Part shown: positions 4,262 through 39,706 of the stretch, piece after piece
Layout of the letters: every line of letters starts with the position of its first letter
Numbering within the stretch: the first letter of the stretch is position 1
From: Acidilobaceae archaeon
GTDB taxonomy: Archaea; Thermoproteota; Thermoprotei_A; Sulfolobales; Acidilobaceae
NCBI GenBank assembly: GCA_027081695.1
Contig: JALWJI010000153.1
Coordinates: 1 to 39,920 of the forward strand
Length of the DNA stretch: 39,920 nt
Direction: 5' to 3'
Program-made: the position numbers and the translations under genes
Notes under the pieces: model-generated
Databases searched by the model: none
Told to the model about the DNA's origin: nothing
Seen by the model: the letters and a program-made list of their open reading frames with translations, nothing else

Positions 4262-4367
4262 TCCCCTCGTTTATGATCCAGAAATATCTCCTAGACGAGG
4301 AAAATAAAATCTATCAATAACTAGTCGATATATAGACATAGAATAGATTGAGGCAAGAGGAAAACCA

Positions 4368-4559
4368 CTACTTGAACTGCTTAGTCTTAAGTTTCTTTAT
4401 CCACGTCAGCTTGTTTGGATTCCTCCTAAGCTTCATGAAGTTCTTATAGCACTTGCTGCTACAGAACCAGAGCACGTCTCCCTTACGTGTCACAAACATT
4501 AACCCTGTCCCCGGCTCTATTACCCTACCACAGTAGTTGCATGTCCTCATCTTCGGCAT
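4368..4559 (-). CDS. rpl24e: 50S ribosomal protein L24e
   Basis: MRTCNYCGRVIEPGTGLMFVTRKGDVLWFCSSKCYKNF is the L24e zinc-ribbon signature. The start may be the second Met (4550). Confidence 0.9.
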   Translation of the reverse strand: MPKMRTCNYCGRVIEPGTGLMFVTRKGDVLWFCSSKCYKNFMKLRRNPNKLTWIKKLKTKQFK

Positions 4560-4652
4560 CTTCCTCTACCTCCCAGACCGGCATGGGCCCTTCTAGGGAT
4601 ATAATAGTTTTAATAGTACACATTCCTATTCTTGGTCAAGGGGAGAAGGAAG

Positions 4653-4889
4653 ATGCCAGAAGACGAGAGCATCATCGAGGAGATCGGATACCCTGCCGAG
4701 GTAATCCAGATAATCGGTAGAACCGGAGTAGCAGGAGAGGTAACACAGGTAAGAGTCAGGATACTAGAAGGGAGAGACAAAGGAAGAATAATAACGAGAA
4801 ACGTGCTCGGAGCCGTCCGTAAAGGAGACATACTAATACTCAGAGAGACAGAAAGAGAAGCAAGAAAACTAAGTAGGAGAAGACGCTAG
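4653..4889 (+). CDS. rps28e: 30S ribosomal protein S28e
   Basis: [68 protein letters not shown] 4653 is preceded by GGGGAGAAGGA (SD-like). The listed ORF begins at an in-frame TTG at 4632. Confidence 0.9.
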
Positions 4890-4892
4890 CAC

Positions 4893-13560: not shown

Positions 13561-13743
13561 ATGGGTAAAAAGAAAGTAAAGGCTGCTGTCAGGCTCCTCT
13601 ACGAGATCGATGTAGACAACTGGACAATAAAGAGAAAGAACAAAATATGCCCCAAGTGCGGTAGTTTTATGGCACACCACCTAAAGCCCGTCGAGAGGTG
13701 GCATTGTGGAAAATGCGGCTACACAGAATTCGTCAAGAAATGA
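13561..13743 (+). CDS. rps27ae: 30S ribosomal protein S27ae
   Basis: 60 aa with zinc ribbon CPKCGSFM...[18 protein letters not shown] lies upstream. Confidence 0.9.
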
Positions 13744-14767
13744 TAATGAGATAATCATATTAGGAATAGAGAGTACCGCACACACGTTTGGTGTCGGAAT
13801 AGTATCTTCCTCTAAACCATTTATTCTCGCCGATATAAGAAAACGATATACGCCGGAAAAAGGAGGAATTCTTCCCCGAGAAGTCGCCCAATACTTCTCT
13901 ACTGTAGCTTCAGATGCTATACACGAGGCCTTCAGAGTATCCGGTTTTTCTCCTAAAGATCTAAGCGCTGTAGCCGTCGCCCTAGGACCTGGTATGGGAC
14001 CTGCTCTCAGGGTCGGAGCCACAGTTGCACGCGCACTATCCTCTCACCTCAAAATACCCCTCATAGCAGTAAATCATGCCATTGCACACATTGAAATAGC
14101 GCGTTTTCTCACAGGACTCAAAGACCCAATAGTACTATATGTATCGGGAGGGAACACTACCGTAACGGCATATAATCATGGAACATATCGAGTCTTCGGA
14201 GAAACACTAGATATCGCGTTAGGAAACCTCCAAGATACTTTTGCCCGCGAGGTAGGTCTCGCACCTCCATATATAAGAAATGGAAGACACGTAATTGACC
14301 ACTGCGCAGACAATGGATCCTTCCTAGAAGATCTACCATACGTTGTAAAAGGCCAAGATGTCTCTTTCTCAGGTTTACTCACGGCAGCTGTAAGGAAATA
14401 CGAGAAATCCCCAAATCTCCTGCCCGATATATGCTATACCCTTCGAGAAATAGCGTATTCTAGTGTGGTCGAAGTAACTGAAAGAGGACTTGCACATTTA
14501 GGAAAAAAACAAGTAATAGTAACTGGTGGTGTCGCTGCAAGCGATTTTCTAAACGAAAAAGTTGAGATAATGGCGAAGTCGCATGATGCTAGCTTTATAC
14601 GGATCCCTAAAAAATATGCGGGCGATAATGGTGTTATGATAGCCCTCACAGGCCTATTAATGTATAGGCATGGCATTGGTTTCATTGAACCCTCAAAAGC
14701 ATTCATAAAACAACGGTGGAGACTCGATAAGGTGCCAGTGCCATGGTATCCCGACACCCTTGGCTAG
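13706..14767 (+). CDS. kae1: tRNA N6-adenosine threonylcarbamoyltransferase Kae1
   Basis: [25 protein letters not shown] (metal-binding His pair), VSGGNT, TGGVAAS and [11 protein letters not shown] start overlaps rps27ae by 38 nt. Confidence 0.9.
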
Positions 14768-15450
14768 CCGAAGGAATCCTAGAATACATAAGAAGATACG
14801 AGCTCCTATCTAGAGGCGCAGAGTCGGAACTATATCTAGGATCGTTTCTTGGCCAGAGAGCAGTATTCAAGCTTCGTAGAAGGAAAAAATACATGGATCC
14901 CATGCTAGATAGAAAGATACGTAGAACCAGAACCTTCAAAGAAGCCCGTATAATTCTCCAGGCATACAAAGGAGGAGTCGCCACACCACGATTATTTGGC
15001 TTTTATCCGAGCCTCTATCTTTTAGTCCTCGAATATATTCCAGGGAAACGTATGAAGGATGTAATAGAAGAATCTAGTGATCTCGAATTAATAACACTTC
15101 TCTCAAGAAATGCAGGCTACCAACTAGGACAAGTTCATAGTTCTGGTATCGTACATGGCGACACAACTACGTCCAATTTCATTCTTTACAGGGATCAATT
15201 ATACGTAATAGATTTTGGTTTATCAGATTCCTCGAAAAATGTTGAAGACAGGGCCGTGGATCTTCACTTGTTCAGGAGATCTATAGAGAGTACACACGCT
15301 AAATATTCTGATATTATGTACTCGAGTTTCCTCGAAGGCTATAGGGAGAACATGGGTTCAATAGCAGAAGAAATAATAGAAAAAGCGGAAGAAATCAGGC
15401 TCAGAGGAAGATACATAGAAGAACGCCGTACCGTGTGGAGGGATATATAG
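14743..15450 (+). CDS. bud32: Kae1-associated kinase Bud32
   Basis: 235 aa RIO-like small kinase with SRGAESELY, IVHGDTTTSNFIL and VIDFGLS. Separate from kae1 but overlapping it by 25 nt. Confidence 0.85.
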   Translation: MVSRHPWLAEGILEYIRRYELLSRGAESELYLGSFLGQRAVFKLRRRKKYMDPMLDRKIRRTRTFKEARIILQAYKGGVATPRLFGFYPSLYLLVLEYIPGKRMKDVIEESSDLELITLLSRNAGYQLGQVHSSGIVHGDTTTSNFILYRDQLYVIDFGLSDSSKNVEDRAVDLHLFRRSIESTHAKYSDIMYSSFLEGYRENMGSIAEEIIEKAEEIRLRGRYIEERRTVWRDI

Positions 15451-16050
15451 TTGGAATGCTTGTATCTGGTAACTGGCAATGAAAACAAATACAAGGAGGC
15501 CTCAGAAATTCTCTCCGAGTATGGTATAAAGCTCTGTATGGCCAATATAGACAAATTAGAGATACAGAGTCCTAGACTTGAAGATATAGCACTCTTTGCA
15601 GCACGGATAGCGTTTTCCCAGTTGAAGAAACCATTAATCGTAGATGACTCAGGACTCTTCATTAATTCGCTTAAAGGATTTCCCGGACCCTATAGTAGCT
15701 ATGTTTACAAAACAATAGGATATGAAGGCATTCTAAAACTAATGTCCGATAAAGATAATAGACGTGCATGCTTTAAGACAGTAGCAGTACTTGTCTACCC
15801 GCCAATCGAAAAAATATTCGTCGGAGAAACCTGTGGATTTATAACAAATTCTCCTAGAGGAAGTGGAGGATTCGGTTTCGACCCAATATTTGTACCCGAA
15901 GGATCTAATCAAACCTATGCGGAGATGGGCATAGAAGAGAAAAACACTATATCTCATCGGGGAAAAGCCTTTAGAAAGCTAGGTCACTGGCTTGCCAAGA
16001 ACCTTTTTGGCTTTAAAGGAAATAACCCCGAGAACAACATAACAATATAA
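15451..16050 (+). CDS. Non-canonical purine NTP pyrophosphatase (HAM1/RdgB, ITPase)
   Basis: LVTGNENKYKEA, VDDSGLFI..L.GFPGPYS, GFGFDPIF and ISHRGKAF. TTG start. Confidence 0.85.
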   Translation: MECLYLVTGNENKYKEASEILSEYGIKLCMANIDKLEIQSPRLEDIALFAARIAFSQLKKPLIVDDSGLFINSLKGFPGPYSSYVYKTIGYEGILKLMSDKDNRRACFKTVAVLVYPPIEKIFVGETCGFITNSPRGSGGFGFDPIFVPEGSNQTYAEMGIEEKNTISHRGKAFRKLGHWLAKNLFGFKGNNPENNITI

Positions 16051-16062
16051 TGCATGTCTCGT

Positions 16063-16150
16063 GCGGGGGTGCCCGAGCCAGGGCGAAGGGGGCGGGCTCA
16101 AGACCCGTTGGCGTAGGCCGGCGTGGGTTCAAATCCCACCCCCCGCACCA
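16063..16150 (+). tRNA. tRNA-Leu (anticodon CAA), long variable arm, genomically encoded CCA
   Basis: Hand-folded. Acceptor GCGGGGG/CCCCCGC, anticodon stem gcggg/cccgt with loop cuCAAga, variable arm tggcgtaggccggc, T-arm gtggg-ttcaaat-cccac, discriminator A, then CCA. Confidence 0.9.
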
Positions 16151-16242
16151 TCCTATGCTGGTTCTTTTCTATCACAATCTATGAATCAAGCGACATTGAC
16201 TAATACAGAATGATTCTAGTTAATGAGATAAAAGAGGAATAT

Positions 16243-16319
16243 TGGTGGACCGGCCGGGATTTGAACCCGGGGCCTCCCGGATGCCAACCGGGCGCTCTTC
16301 CAGGCTGAGCTACCGGCCC
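16243..16319 (-). tRNA. tRNA-Ala (anticodon GGC), G3:U70 pair, genomically encoded CCA
   Basis: The reverse complement folds as GGGCCGG-TA-GCTC..GAGC-G-cccgg-ttGGCat-ccggg-aggcc-ccggg-ttcaaat-cccgg-CCGGTCC-A-CCA. Confidence 0.9.
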
Positions 16320-16387: not shown

Positions 16388-17692
16388 GTGTCTAATCCCT
16401 TATTACATCTCTTCACTACCACAGTTTCTTCTGGATCAGGTGAAGAAGGCTTGAACTCCCTAGACGAAATATTTGACTCGATAACAGATTCACCCATATT
16501 CAAGGACAGAGAAAAACTACTACCAGACTACATACCTGAGAGACTCGTCCACAGAGAACAAGAGCTAACAAGACTCGCCCAGACCCTAGCCGTAGCACTC
16601 AGAGGAGAGAGACCCAACAACATATTCATATACGGGTTAACTGGTACTGGAAAAACTGCCGCCGTAAAGCTAGTCACGAGAAAACTCTCTGATAGAGCCT
16701 CTACTAGAGGTGTCAGACTCTATCCTGTCTATATTAACGTAAGACAGCGAGATACCCCTTATAGGGTAATGAGCGATATCGCGGAAACTATCGGTCTGAG
16801 AATCCCCTTTACAGGACTAGCAACAAGCGAGGTTTTTAGAAGGTTCATGGCTAAGGCGAAGAGACTCCGCGGAATAATGGTAATTGTACTCGACGAGATA
16901 GATTTCCTCGTCAAGAAACACGGAGACGATATATTGTACAAGCTTCTAAGAGCAAATGAAGAGCTAGAAAACTTCAAGATCTCGATCGTAGGGATAACAA
17001 ACAGTATATCGTTCGTTGAAAACCTTGATCCTCGAGTAAAGAGCAGTCTCGGAGAAGAAGAAATAGTGTTCTCGCCATATAATGCCCAACAACTAAACGA
17101 TATCCTCTCAGAAAGAGCCTCCCTCGCATTCAAAGACGGTGTACTCGACGACGATGTAATACCTCTATGCGCAGCCCTAGCAGCAAGAGAACACGGTGAT
17201 GCGAGAAGAGCTCTCGACCTACTCAGAGTAGCAGGAGAAATTGCCGAGAGACAAGGAGACAGGAAAGTAACCTCACGGCACGTAATGGCTGCTAGAATAG
17301 AAATTGAACGTGATAGGGTAGTAGAAATAGTTAGAACCTTGCCCATGCACGGTAAATTAGTATTAGCTGCTGTGACTGCCATGACGAGAGGAGGCAAAAA
17401 CAAGACGACCACCGGCGAGGTTTACGACTACTATAGAAAATTAGTTGCTCGACTAGGAATCGAAGAAGTAACGTTTAGAAGAGTAAGCGGGATAATTGGA
17501 GAGCTAGATATGCTAGGGATAATTAGGACTCGTACTATTAGTAGGGGGCGGTATGGTAAAACACGATATATAGAGCTGGCCTCGAGCTACAAGCCGATTA
17601 TTGATGTACTCGCTGAAGACTCCTCGTTAGAATATATAGCTAGGAACCTTGAGGAGGTCATAAATGCCTCAGAGAATAGTCGTAGCCTGTGA
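16388..17692 (+). CDS. cdc6: Orc1/Cdc6 replication initiator
   Basis: 434 aa with LLPDYIPERLVHREQEL, Walker A GLTGTGKTA, Walker B VLDEID, sensor regions (GITN, GDARRALDLL) and a C-terminal winged helix. GTG start; a later start is possible. Confidence 0.9.
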   Translation: MSNPLLHLFTTTVSSGSGEEGLNSLDEIFDSITDSPIFKDREKLLPDYIPERLVHREQELTRLAQTLAVALRGERPNNIFIYGLTGTGKTAAVKLVTRKLSDRASTRGVRLYPVYINVRQRDTPYRVMSDIAETIGLRIPFTGLATSEVFRRFMAKAKRLRGIMVIVLDEIDFLVKKHGDDILYKLLRANEELENFKISIVGITNSISFVENLDPRVKSSLGEEEIVFSPYNAQQLNDILSERASLAFKDGVLDDDVIPLCAALAAREHGDARRALDLLRVAGEIAERQGDRKVTSRHVMAARIEIERDRVVEIVRTLPMHGKLVLAAVTAMTRGGKNKTTTGEVYDYYRKLVARLGIEEVTFRRVSGIIGELDMLGIIRTRTISRGRYGKTRYIELASSYKPIIDVLAEDSSLEYIARNLEEVINASENSRSL

Positions 17693-36001: not shown

Positions 36002-36244
36002 ATGGCTCGTGCAATTGTCATGATAAACACGGATGTAGGAAAGGAAAATGAAATCTTCGAGAAAGTCCTCGAGATCCCAGAGGTCAAAGAGGTATACATG
36101 GTATATGGTATACACGACCTAATAGTAATCATCGAAGCAGACACCATGGAGAAGCTGCGGAACCTCATAACAGAGAATATCCGCCGTATGGACGGTGTTA
36201 AGAGCACGCTGACAAGCATCGTAGTAATGCATAAGACAAAGTAA
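36002..36244 (+). CDS. Stand-alone Lrp/AsnC ligand-binding (RAM) domain protein, no HTH
   Basis: 80 aa. AIVMINTDVGKENEIFEKVLEIPEVKEVYMVYGIHDLIVIIEADTMEKLRNLITENIRRMDGVKSTLTSIVV matches the beta-alpha-beta-beta-alpha-beta AsnC-type RAM pattern. Confidence 0.8.
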   Translation: MARAIVMINTDVGKENEIFEKVLEIPEVKEVYMVYGIHDLIVIIEADTMEKLRNLITENIRRMDGVKSTLTSIVVMHKTK

Positions 36245-36298: not shown

Positions 36299-37720
36299 AT
36301 GATACCTAACGTGTTCTTTCCCCAAAACAAGCCTCCTGGAGAAGACTGGATTCCCTTTACACTTGCACTAGACGACATAGACAGTCCTGGAGGCGGGTGC
36401 ACGACTCATCTAACTGGTCTCCTACTCTACGAGCTCCGAGACAAGCTACTGCTTGCAGACTATCCCCTCCTAGTAAGGCTTGCCCCGGGCGTTCCATGGA
36501 AGACACGGGGCAACGCCGCGACAGTCATAAGGGGATGGATCCAGGGATTCGGCTATGAGGAGCTCTTAGAGCGCGCGAGATTACTCGCCGTAGAGTATAG
36601 TAGTGGGAGGGTAAATGAGCCGGGGAAGGCTCCTGGGATAGCATTATATAAGGGTACTGCTCCGTGGAGAGACCGTGTCCTACGCCGGCTCTATCTGCGA
36701 GGCGTTTCCGAACTCGTATACGGCGAGTACATAGTTGAGACTGCGATATCGAGAGGCGTCATGCTCTGGGGAGGTCGTGGACGCGTCGGCGCAGTCCTAG
36801 CTCTTGCATCACTATCCCCGGAGGACCCGTATACATATGAGTTAATCGCGTATAGATACCCCGAGAACTGGGGGCGTCCCAGATGCGTTGATCATGATCC
36901 CGTAAAAGAATCCTGTATCCCTGCATGTGCTTCCAATAACTATGATCTATCAACTGGTAAACTCGCCGCGGCCCCGAATGGTCCTGACCCTATACTCGCA
37001 GGATTCCGCGGCGTCTGTATAGGAGGCCTTGGATGCTATGCCTCTATTCTGTGCGAGGAGCCTCATTTCTGGGTGCTTTACCGGAGTAATCAGCATACGG
37101 ATATCCACTATGGATCAATGTTAACCCCCCGGTTAACACCCTACAAGAGCATAAGAATAACCATAACCATCCTAGACAAGGAAAAACTACCGGGATCCCA
37201 TATACTTTTGCAGGGGCTCCATCCAGACCTCGGGAAAATCATTGTAGCCGTATACCGTGAAACGGGGCCTATGAGGAGACTAGCCGAGAACCTTGTAAGA
37301 GGAGACCTAGTAGAGATTATGGGCACCGTGAGGCCCTACCCTGGACTAGACGAGGGATACACTCTTGCAGCCGAGAAACTTAGAATAATCAAGCTCGAAG
37401 AGGAGAATCTGCAGGTCGCACCTAGATGTCCACGATGCGGTAAGCGTATGAAGTCCATGGGTAGAGGCCAAGGATACCGGTGTCCACGATGCGGTTACCG
37501 GGATCCCGAGGCCCATCCAATAATGATACATGGTATCAGGAGAATCGTTCCATCAATCGTTACACCAACGCCTAGTAACCTCAGGCACCTTGTTAAACCA
37601 CCATGGCTTGGCTCCGGCCCTGTTACACCTATCCCTCATAGATTATTGAAGGTTAACGAGGTCTTCTCTATAAAAGTCCCTTCTCCTGCCACATTAGAGC
37701 TCTGTAGTGATTGTATGTGA
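36299..37720 (+). CDS. tiaS: tRNA(Ile2) 2-agmatinylcytidine synthetase TiaS
   Basis: 473 aa. N-terminal LDDIDSPGGGCTTHL (kinase-domain signature), an OB-like middle region and the C-terminal zinc ribbon CPRCGKRM...YRCPRCGY. Confidence 0.85.
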   Translation: MIPNVFFPQNKPPGEDWIPFTLALDDIDSPGGGCTTHLTGLLLYELRDKLLLADYPLLVRLAPGVPWKTRGNAATVIRGWIQGFGYEELLERARLLAVEYSSGRVNEPGKAPGIALYKGTAPWRDRVLRRLYLRGVSELVYGEYIVETAISRGVMLWGGRGRVGAVLALASLSPEDPYTYELIAYRYPENWGRPRCVDHDPVKESCIPACASNNYDLSTGKLAAAPNGPDPILAGFRGVCIGGLGCYASILCEEPHFWVLYRSNQHTDIHYGSMLTPRLTPYKSIRITITILDKEKLPGSHILLQGLHPDLGKIIVAVYRETGPMRRLAENLVRGDLVEIMGTVRPYPGLDEGYTLAAEKLRIIKLEEENLQVAPRCPRCGKRMKSMGRGQGYRCPRCGYRDPEAHPIMIHGIRRIVPSIVTPTPSNLRHLVKPPWLGSGPVTPIPHRLLKVNEVFSIKVPSPATLELCSDCM

Positions 37721-37754
37721 TCGCTATAATACAATGTTAACTCCCCGGTTAACA

Positions 37755-37777
37755 ACCCCCCAGTTTCCAATGGAAAC
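37755..37777 (-). repeat. ORB-like element 1
   Basis: aaccccccagTTTCCAATGGAAAC. C-run, 2-nt spacer, then a perfect 7-bp dyad gtttcca-a-tggaaac. On the minus strand it reads GTTTCCATTGGAAACTGGGGGGTT. Confidence 0.7.
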
Positions 37778-37800
37778 ACATACCAATACCCGGAGCCAGG

Positions 37801-37821
37801 GACCCCCTCGTTTCCTATGCA
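37801..37821 (-). repeat. ORB-like element 2
   Basis: gaccccctcgtttcctatgca. Shares a perfect 20-mer (37800-37819) with ORB4 (38025-38044). Confidence 0.75.
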
Positions 37822-37936
37822 CTTATCTTAAACTAGAACTCCTGTATAACGTTTCACTTGGATATAATTGGTTTGCATAATGATTATATCTAAATATATA
37901 TAATTAAAAATATATTAATATAACATAATTTAAATC

Positions 37937-37950
37937 TTCCATAGAGAAAG
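37937..37950 (+). repeat. mini-ORB-like element (dyad without G-string)
   Basis: ttccatagagaaag, in the same orientation as ORB3 and 27 nt upstream of it. Confidence 0.4.
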
Positions 37951-37963
37951 ATCCGATATACTA

Positions 37964-37986
37964 GTTCCATAGGAAATAGGGGGGTC
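37964..37986 (+). repeat. ORB-like element 3 (inverted relative to ORB1/2/4)
   Basis: gTTCCATAGGAAAtaggggggtc. Dyad plus a 6-G string read on the plus strand. Confidence 0.75.
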
Positions 37987-38025
37987 TGGGACCTCCTTCG
38001 TTGTATGTTTCTGGGGTTTATAAAG

Positions 38026-38048
38026 GACCCCCTCGTTTCCTATGGAGC
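38026..38048 (-). repeat. ORB-like element 4
   Basis: gaccccctcgtttcctatggagc. On the minus strand it reads GCTCCATAGGAAACGAGGGGGTC. Confidence 0.75.
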
Positions 38049-38349
38049 AGATATAAGGATATAATGTAACATAATAAATTAAATTTTTAATTTATTTTAA
38101 TTATTAATATGTTATAATATATACATAGTGATTCAGAAAATTTAAATTGTTACCGTTTTTGATTGTAAAAGGGAGATGTCGATAATTATTTATATATATT
38201 ACCTAAATTATTGTGTATATATTTAATATTATGTACCGGAAAAAATCTCGAGTATTATTAATTGAATATGCGGCTAGGCGAAGGGTAGCGGATCGCAAAG
38301 CCTCACTTCCATAACATGGGGCTTACCCCTAATGTAGAAGTATTTCCGG

Positions 38350-38357
38350 TATATAAA
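38350..38357 (+). promoter_or_regulatory. TATA box for the origin-proximal ORF (leaderless spacing)
   Basis: tatataaa begins 24 nt upstream of ATG 38374. This argues for ATG 38374 rather than GTG 38365 as the start. Confidence 0.45.
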
Positions 38358-38373: not shown

Positions 38374-38814
38374 ATGAGTGTTGCGGTGGTTGGCCCGGGT
38401 ATTACTCCTGGGCAACGGTTAGAGATACTCGAGCGGACTATTGTTAGGTATGCTGTGGCTCTTGCTACGGTCGAGGAATTCATTGATGCCGGTGAGAGAG
38501 GTACGACGCTTCTAGTGGATCCTAGCTATGTCGCGATGAAGATCCTAGAGAGAGCATGGGATATTCTAGGCATGCTGGGCATACAGCTTACACTTCATGA
38601 GTATCAGTACCTTATTGGGTTTAGGCAGAATGCTAAGATCGCGGCAGAGGACGTAATTAGATATGCCTTACCCGTCCTTAAACAAGTATGTGGTAGGGAG
38701 AAACTTATCCGCATAATTAAAGGGTTTAGACTGGAGGACTTAACTAGAGATAAAGAGTCGATGAATAAGTTTAAAGAATGCAGAGAGGCTCTTAGGAAAA
38801 AACTCTTCAACTAA
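38374..38814 (+). CDS. Hypothetical protein (146 aa), origin-proximal
   Basis: Clean ORF with a predicted helical composition and no recognisable motif. The listed ORF starts at GTG 38365. Confidence 0.55.
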   Translation: MSVAVVGPGITPGQRLEILERTIVRYAVALATVEEFIDAGERGTTLLVDPSYVAMKILERAWDILGMLGIQLTLHEYQYLIGFRQNAKIAAEDVIRYALPVLKQVCGREKLIRIIKGFRLEDLTRDKESMNKFKECREALRKKLFN

Positions 38815-38974
38815 ACTAGAGGATGTGGTCAAAGACATATTTCCGATGGTATAAGAGCTAGGAGGCCTCTGTTCTTATAAAAGTACTTGTGTTCATCACT
38901 CGGTTTGTACTTAATGTCTAGTTTATTCTATGTGATCTAGTAGGGACAATCATTAAGGGCCATATAAACTACCT

Positions 38975-39706
38975 ATGCAAGCGGGGATATCGATGTGCGA
39001 TCCTAAGGAAGCAGCTGCTAGAGGAGCTCTAAGCATTCTGTCAGAGTTGGAGGAGCCTATACGTGTCATGGGGGTTGGTACGGGATCGACCGTTGATAGG
39101 TTCATCTCGTTGCTTGCTGGATCAGAGATATCAGATGGTATTGAGGGATATGTTCCTACAAGTATCGATACGAGTCTAAAACTCTACAGTCGTGGTCTTA
39201 GAAGAGTATTGGATAGTATTCCGGTATCCGATAAGATAGACGTCTACGTTGATGGAGCCGACGAGGTGGATCCTTCAGGAAACCTGATAAAGGGTAGGGG
39301 AGGGGCTCTTCTCGGCGAGAAGATATTAGCGTACTCGAGCAGGCTCAATATTATAATAGTTGACGAGTCCAAGCTTGTAGAGACGCTGGGAGAAAAGAAG
39401 CCCGTTCCAGTAGAGGTTGTTCCCAGAGCCCTCGGATACGTCTATCGGGTTCTGAAGTCAATGGGGCTAAACCCGAGGCATAGATCATGTAATTGTAAGG
39501 ATGGGCCAGCAGTATCCGATAATGGAGGAATACTCCTTGACCTATATACAGGTCCTATAAAGGATCCCCGACGGCTAGACATGGAGCTCCACATGATACC
39601 GGGGATCGTTGAGACCGGACTATTCCTAGGGCTAACCGACATAGTCGTCGTTGGGTCTAGGGACTGTTCTTGGAGGATGCTTAGATTTGACCGGGGAAGA
39701 AGATGA
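38975..39706 (+). CDS. rpiA: Ribose-5-phosphate isomerase A
   Basis: GVGTGSTV, DGADEVD, LIKGRGGALLGEKIL and VETGLF motifs. The start may be the second Met (38993). Confidence 0.9.
   Translation: MQAGISMCDPKEAAARGALSILSELEEPIRVMGVGTGSTVDRFISLLAGSEISDGIEGYVPTSIDTSLKLYSRGLRRVLDSIPVSDKIDVYVDGADEVDPSGNLIKGRGGALLGEKILAYSSRLNIIIVDESKLVETLGEKKPVPVEVVPRALGYVYRVLKSMGLNPRHRSCNCKDGPAVSDNGGILLDLYTGPIKDPRRLDMELHMIPGIVETGLFLGLTDIVVVGSRDCSWRMLRFDRGRR

Follow-up and report, generated by a model that had tools for sequence, protein, structure and literature searches.

A predicted oriC1-type replication origin downstream of tiaS, 20 kb from orc1-1, in an uncultured Acidilobaceae archaeon

An initiator gene lying beside the origin of replication is the textbook arrangement, with known exceptions. 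We take Aeropyrum to belong to the same GTDB family as the archaeon studied here, and Aeropyrum pernix oriC1 is said (Grainge et al., 2006) to have four origin recognition boxes (ORBs), with one pair to each side of an AT-rich region. The present analysis concerns 39,920 bp (39.9 kb of the genome; hereafter, the window) of an uncultured Acidilobaceae (Desulfurococcales-grade) archaeon, contig JALWJI010000153.1 of assembly GCA_027081695.1, and in particular the 653-bp gap downstream of tiaS. An original prediction had placed in this gap an Orc1/Cdc6-dependent origin with ORBs around an unwinding element. That proposal is strongly supported by synteny in ten genomes, by a match to Sulfolobus islandicus oriC1, and by an Orc1-1 orthologue encoded in the window, and we put the probability that the gap is a chromosomal, oriC1-type, Orc1-1-dependent origin at roughly 0.86. 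The analysis shows that the elements exist and cluster non-randomly, that they are conserved at syntenic positions and match Sulfolobus elements defined by experiment, and which gene encodes the initiator.

In Sulfolobus, Orc1-1 is the oriC1-specific initiator (PMC12141716). At S. islandicus oriC1, ORB2 and ORB3 are each individually required for firing, and the unwinding element is mostly tolerant of mutation, with the exception of ucm, the binding site of the nucleoid protein UBP (PMC12141716). Our comparison with this origin used the 181-bp fragment printed in the supplement of the same paper, in which the ORB scan pattern (TCCAWWGGAAANNNGGGGG, with up to 2 mismatches) recovers ORB3 with 0 mismatches and ORB2 with 1. 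In A. pernix, neither cdc6 gene adjoins an origin (PMC5333045); two origins are active by marker-frequency analysis, one of which matches the Orc1-1-dependent oriC1 (PMC10769869), and a passage in PMC12141716 reports ucm in both. The oriC of Hyperthermus butylicus has no adjoining initiator gene either (2026 preprint, bioRxiv 10.64898/2026.08.15.744077).

Scanned with the same pattern, the window yielded four ORBs (TCCAnnGGAAAnnnGGGG), all inside a 291-bp stretch of the tiaS-downstream gap. These are ORB1 (37754-37777, minus strand; core 37756-37774, TCCATTGGAAACTGGGGGG), ORB2 (37800-37821, minus strand; core 37803-37821, TGCATAGGAAACGAGGGGG), ORB3 (37964-37986, plus strand; core 37966-37984, TCCATAGGAAATAGGGGGG), and ORB4 (38025-38048, minus strand; core 38028-38046, TCCATAGGAAACGAGGGGG). 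ORB3 is inverted relative to ORB2, and both turn their dyads towards the unwinding element. Dinucleotide-preserving shuffles of the window (n = 100) contained a mean of 0.02 matches, and none of the 100 reached four sites. Elsewhere in the window, including the vicinity of orc1-1, no match with up to 2 mismatches was found. Thus, the four copies of the dyad-plus-G-string type described in the original prediction are recovered at the positions assigned to them, except that ORB1, although a real element, starts at 37754, one base before the 37755 first given. The gap that holds the ORBs is, as had been claimed, the longest noncoding stretch of the window, because the only similar gap free of open reading frames (ORFs), 4262-4892 (631 bp), is coding: it looks ORF-free when the ORF list starts at 100 amino acids and encodes ribosomal proteins L24e (4368-4559, minus strand) and S28e (4632-4889, plus strand), which were recognized by eye from their translations.

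Relatives of the locus were gathered by a TiaS protein scan with one genome per species, which gave L001 to L007, and by protein look-ups, which gave L080 (Stetteria hydrogenophila), L081 (the complete genome of the cultured Caldisphaera lagunensis, CP003378, whose gap between tiaS and the pyruvate:ferredoxin oxidoreductase genes lies near 549 kb), and L082 (a metagenome-assembled genome [MAG] of Acidilobus). L001 to L003 are Acidilobaceae or Desulfurococcales MAGs with TiaS identities of 90 to 94%, and L004 to L007 are more distant Acidilobaceae (47 to 49%). Ten loci reach beyond tiaS, namely, the window, L001 to L006, and L080 to L082. In all ten, the DNA downstream of tiaS has the same layout: ORB(-), ORB(-), an interval of 96 to 183 bp, ORB(+), a spacer of 30 to 85 bp, and ORB(-). 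Both outer elements, ORB1 and ORB4, thus have orthologous counterparts in every locus, and the four-ORB layout is kept with TiaS identity down to about 40%. The 40 ORBs of the ten loci give the consensus TCCAnnGGAAac.ggGGGGTc. In L001 to L003, the ORB1-ORB4 core is 81 to 87% identical to that of the window, which is high for noncoding DNA; tiaS itself is 88 to 94% identical.

The syntenic anchor of the predicted origin across Acidilobaceae is the pair formed by an AsnC-type gene (36002-36244) and tiaS (36299-37720), both on the plus strand and assigned by Pfam. The pair is kept upstream of the origin, and the gene downstream varies among loci: rpiA in L002, L003, and L006; pyruvate:ferredoxin oxidoreductase genes in Stetteria, Caldisphaera, and Acidilobus; and an orphan ORF (ORFan) in the window and L001. 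The flanks of the related tiaS loci contain no further ORB cluster. The 558 kb of tiaS loci sampled outside this family, from Bathyarchaeia, Desulfurococcaceae, Methanoperedens, and Thermoplasmata, held 8 isolated pattern matches and no cluster. Chance therefore does not account for the ORB cluster, and its linkage to tiaS is specific to Acidilobaceae, which argues against a dispersed repeat or a family resembling miniature inverted-repeat transposable elements (MITEs).

The perfect 20-mer that had been noted as common to ORB2 and ORB4 (37800-37819 = 38025-38044) is indeed present. Compared with ORB4 of L001 to L003, the ORB4 of the window has three consecutive positions changed (TCA to CTC), and the change produces the 20-nt identity with ORB2. 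Since the ORB4 of these relatives differs from ORB2 at three positions, the identity is a local change in the lineage of the window, which points to gene conversion over a short patch, or to a paired indel, in the predicted origin.

Between ORB2 and ORB3 lies the predicted duplex unwinding element (DUE; 37822-37965), 144 bp long with 22% G+C, whose core (37858-37936) has 12.7% G+C. For comparison, the mean of the window is 43.7%, and its next most AT-rich 150-nt stretch has 24.7%. The window thus shows an inverted pair, ORB2(-) and ORB3(+), with an AT-rich interval between its members, and this interval is 78 to 87% identical in L001 to L003. It holds a ucm-like motif, TTTGCATAATG (37872-37882, plus strand), which departs at a single position from TTTGTATAATG, the ucm core of S. 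islandicus oriC1. The core is exact in L001, L003, Caldisphaera, and Acidilobus and has 1 to 3 mismatches in the other loci; in 10 of 10 loci the motif falls within the ORB2-ORB3 interval, and its strand never changes. Taken locus by locus, the match has a shuffle P value of 0.0005 to 0.2.

Two results weigh against an origin at this position. Within the window alone, the ucm match is not significant, and nucleotide skew over the 40-kb window shows a local sign change near 37.9 kb with no convincing turning point. The motif convinces because it recurs across genomes, and the missing turning point says little because the window is 40 kb of a probably multi-origin chromosome.

The presumed trans-acting initiator gene is orc1-1 (cdc6-1; 16388-17692, plus strand), which encodes a 434-amino-acid protein with the Pfam domains Cdc6_lid, Cdc6_C, and AAA. 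The best PDB match of this protein is 2V1U, the ORB-bound crystal structure of A. pernix ORC1 (E = 3e-145), followed by 2QBY_A, Cdc6-1 of Saccharolobus solfataricus (E = 6.7e-130), and the Cdc6-3 and ORC2 paralogues score far below these two. Moreover, it shares an identical wing motif, RGRYGKTR, with A. pernix ORC1. On the basis of this ranking and the identical wing motif, the protein is the Orc1-1 orthologue.

Pfam annotation of the window genes bears out that no orc1/cdc6 gene sits beside the gap; orc1-1 ends 20 kb upstream of the ORBs. The original prediction considered this separation unusual, which it is not: it is on record for A. pernix and H. butylicus and is family-wide in Acidilobaceae. 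In Stetteria, a single contig carries orc1-1 and tiaS, separated by about 49 kb and oriented to each other as in the window; the two are about 20 kb apart in a close relative of the window organism. The gene cluster of orc1-1, endonuclease dU, and malate dehydrogenase is also kept. The linkage of AsnC, TiaS, and oriC1, with orc1-1 located 20 to 50 kb off, may reflect an ancestral, family-wide uncoupling of the replicator from its initiator gene.

We also scanned metagenomes with the ORB pattern, sampling many unrelated archaea; at least 120 stretches matched, of which 80 were examined. Two or more ORBs within 400 bp were present in 38 of the 80, and among these 38 clusters an orc1 gene lay within 250 bp in 12 and 3 to 4 kb away in 3. 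At least 5 clusters (of 17 testable) had no orc1 nearby despite a flank of 2.5 kb or more on both sides. Among the metagenome matches listed, the motif occurs nearly always in local clusters. On metagenome contig Ga0256833_1023971 (L130, 1193-3301), a distant TiaS homologue with about 31% identity stands beside four ORB-like sites; linkage of tiaS to an origin may thus exist also outside the examined Acidilobaceae loci.

The surroundings of orc1-1 differ among relatives. In a close relative (L085, 1-2739), an integrase gene (Phage_integr_3) and six small ORFs precede orc1-1, and this DNA looks like an integrated element. The window (13706-16319) and L086 carry tsaD, a RIO-type kinase gene, and a Ham1-like gene at the same place. 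In the window, tRNA-Leu and tRNA-Ala genes are located just upstream of orc1-1.

Compared with S. islandicus oriC1, the window shows the same central arrangement. The S. islandicus ORB2 and ORB3 are inverted and 96 bp apart, with their dyads facing the AT-rich interval and their G-strings pointing outward, as in the window, and the left ORB of S. islandicus has the polarity to the unwinding element that ORB2 has here. The two loci differ in the length of the unwinding element (96 bp in S. islandicus versus 144 bp in the window) and in the ucm core, TTTGTATAAT(G), which is present inside the S. islandicus element as two inverted copies, whereas the window has one clear copy. Furthermore, Sulfolobus oriC1 has three ORBs with orc1-1 immediately adjacent, whereas the window has four ORBs with orc1-1 20 kb off. 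The cognate initiator of oriC1 in Sulfolobus and S. solfataricus is Orc1-1, as the 2QBY_A match indicates for the window. The predicted origin is the counterpart of Sulfolobus oriC1.

Judged by family membership, ORB similarity, and the literature, it probably also corresponds to A. pernix oriC1. Both origins have ORBs composed of a dyad plus a G-string, their initiators are orthologous (the 2V1U match), and in both the initiator gene lies off the origin (PMC5333045); the window locus alone has a lineage-specific AT-rich tract and ORFan insertion after ORB4. The main oriC of H. butylicus, a member of another family, resembles the window in having an ORB(-)/DUE/ORB(+) order and no adjoining initiator gene (bioRxiv 10.64898/2026.08.15.744077). 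Pyrococcus oriC shares the TTCCAnTGGAA dyad with a C/G-string (PMC1904270 gives oligonucleotides for ORB1 and ORB2 of P. furiosus); however, the G-string stands about 10 nt from the dyad in Pyrococcus and 3 to 4 nt in the window, and Pyrococcus, unlike the window, has many mini-ORBs and an adjacent cdc6 gene. A WhiP-dependent origin of the Sulfolobus oriC3 or A. pernix oriC2 type, marked by an adjacent whiP (cdt1-like) gene and an inverted repeat/ucm/inverted repeat layout without ORBs, was considered and rejected: the neighbours here are AsnC, TiaS, an all-helical ORFan, and RpiA, and canonical ORBs are present.

The most likely mechanism is modelled on S. islandicus oriC1 (PMC12141716). Orc1-1 monomers made from the gene 20 kb upstream would bind the four ORBs with defined polarity, the inverted ORB2(-) and ORB3(+), dyads inward, would frame the 144-bp unwinding element at 37822-37965, and a UBP-like nucleoid protein would occupy the ucm-like site at 37872-37882. 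At the unwinding element, MCM would be loaded by Orc1-1 in its ATP-bound form, and replication would leave from there in both directions. ORB1 and ORB4 would act as outer, auxiliary initiator sites, and the second AT-rich tract and the ORFan would be a lineage-specific insertion between ORB4 and rpiA rather than origin components. It is by analogy that we infer Orc1-1 binding, UBP binding, MCM loading, and firing in the window organism.

A different reading of the same DNA is a functional origin with two unwinding zones, in which ORB4 and the second AT-rich tract (38051-38270, 17.3% G+C) form a second initiation module. The original prediction likewise counted this tract as a second unwinding tract and had it bracketed by ORB4 and a weak, possible mini-ORB-like element at 38307-38321. 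Indeed, the tract holds the most AT-rich 150 nt of the window (15% G+C), the polarity of ORB4 to it equals that of ORB2 to the first tract, and L001 is likewise AT-rich at that position, with other sequence; unwinding elements, moreover, tolerate sequence change (PMC12141716). The relatives, however, tell against such a module, since the tract is lineage specific and hypervariable. In L002 and L003, about 95 nt separate ORB4 from the start of rpiA, and the second tract, the ORFan, and a 160-bp spacer are all missing; in L006, ORB4 runs straight into rpiA, and the tract is absent there and in the Stetteria, Caldisphaera, and Acidilobus loci. Every locus without the tract keeps ORB4. The order of ORB4 followed by rpiA in L002, L003, and L006 is therefore probably ancestral, and the approximately 0.9 kb found in the window and L001 is probably an insertion. 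Nor does the tract have the elements of a second module: pattern scans revealed neither an inverted ORB beyond its far end nor a ucm-like motif within it, the element at 38307-38321 fails the ORB pattern and sits in DNA missing from relatives, and firing in S. islandicus needs both inverted ORBs (PMC12141716). With neither a second flanking ORB nor conservation of the tract in relatives that keep ORB4, we consider a two-zone origin very unlikely.

By these comparisons, the second tract is not part of the conserved origin and came with a lineage-specific insertion of about 0.9 kb that carries the ORFan. An accessory role for it is conceivable, since an unwinding element depends on base composition and not on a particular sequence. 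The window and L001 share 97% nucleotide identity in the ORFan, 95% in rpiA, and 94 to 97% in the flanking genes; the DNA between ORB4 and the ORFan promoter (38051-38340 in the window and 5745-5880 in L001) is unalignable and of different length. The AT-rich DNA beside ORB4, adjoining the predicted origin, is locally hypervariable. Descent of the second tract from a duplication of ORB2 and the first tract was rejected, as the resemblance is no better than chance: outside the 20-mer, local alignment of the two tracts scored 56.5, a value reached by 47 of 300 shuffles, whose scores were 50 ± 6.4. A broader scenario, in which the DNA outside ORB4 is a hotspot of foreign-DNA capture with an accessory-zone or TATA-coupling role, seems unlikely to us, as does, separately, the ancestral uncoupling of initiator gene and replicator.

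The locus might alternatively be a dormant or relic origin, with an array of Orc1-1 sites that mainly regulates neighbouring promoters. A candidate for such a promoter is the palindromic TATA-like box TTTATAAA (38017-38024), which directly adjoins ORB4, is kept in L001 to L003, and has similar counterparts in L006 (CTTATAAGG) and Acidilobus (CTTTTAAGG). This box may represent a promoter that Orc1-1 occludes, or else a bendable element, and it could couple Orc1-1 occupancy to transcription into the second tract. The distance of the initiator gene also fits a relic, and a passage in PMC4595724 describes dormant origins in archaea. On the other hand, the whole module of four ORBs and a ucm motif, with its polarity and spacing, is kept across genera whose TiaS proteins are about 40 to 50% identical, and a relic is not expected to be so maintained. 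In addition, the Orc1-1-type origin of A. pernix, which has no initiator neighbour either, is active by marker frequency (PMC5333045, PMC10769869). A relic is thus highly improbable in our judgement. As for four chance neighbours from a MITE-like or other dispersed repeat family, the 20-mer common to ORB2 and ORB4 would suit it, but that identity is a local change, the window has no further copies, position, order, and orientation are syntenic in ten genomes, and the elements are 19- to 24-nt motifs resembling protein sites in which the sequence reveals neither terminal inverted repeats nor target-site duplications nor internal sequence, so that its likelihood is close to nil.

Further features of the gap surround the predicted origin. 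A conserved box, GTTAAC-TCCCCG-GTTAAC (37736-37753), places a second C/G-string about one helical turn (approximately 10 bp) outside that of ORB1. It is nearly identical in C. lagunensis (GTTAACTCCCCAGTTAAC) and occurs as AACCCCCCGGT in L004, L005, L006, and L082, and it may be an extension of the ORB1 footprint. A mini-ORB had been proposed at 37937-37950, but it is not conserved even in the closest relatives, in which TTCCATAG is replaced by TTTATAG or TTCATAA. An Rfam search found no noncoding RNA in the gap at gathering score and only three tRNAs in the whole window; the sole match with an E value below 1, AfaR, was rejected at 25.8 bits against a gathering threshold of 100. A scan for bacterial-type promoters and terminators was uninformative, the host being an archaeon.

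The ORFan (38374-38814, plus strand) encodes 146 amino acids, is predicted to be all-helical, and bears no likeness to an initiator. It has no Pfam, NCBIfam, or PHROG family and no viral relative, and a search of 1.84 billion representative proteins returned only the ORFan itself. Its single-sequence AlphaFold model (predicted local distance difference test [pLDDT] score, 73) is all-helical and has no PDB match at an E value of <0.001. A hidden initiator, winged-helix protein, or WhiP-like protein was rejected for this ORF because it has neither a family nor a structural match. The TATA box at 38350-38357, about 20 nt ahead of the ATG, fits a leaderless ORFan mRNA. In the DNA between the ORFan and rpiA, a dyad-like TTTCCGATGG is found at 38840-38849, and a second ucm-like string, GGTTTGTACTTAATG, is found at 38902-38916. 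For rpiA (38975-39706; Pfam), the ATG at 38993 (MCDPKEAA...) is favoured over position 38975 and is probably the start, because the relatives begin at the equivalent methionine (MTCDPKEA in L002) and 38975 lies too near the TATA-like CATATAAA at 38960-38967.

An origin of this kind is already known, and the current understanding of archaeal replication initiation is unchanged by it. What the analysis provides is an origin that can be annotated with confidence in an uncultured lineage of Acidilobaceae, together with a four-ORB and ucm architecture that is kept from Caldisphaera to Stetteria. In this family, the predicted oriC1 is anchored beside AsnC-TiaS and not beside orc1-1; therefore, origin finders that rely on adjacency to the initiator gene would miss the oriC1 of Acidilobaceae.

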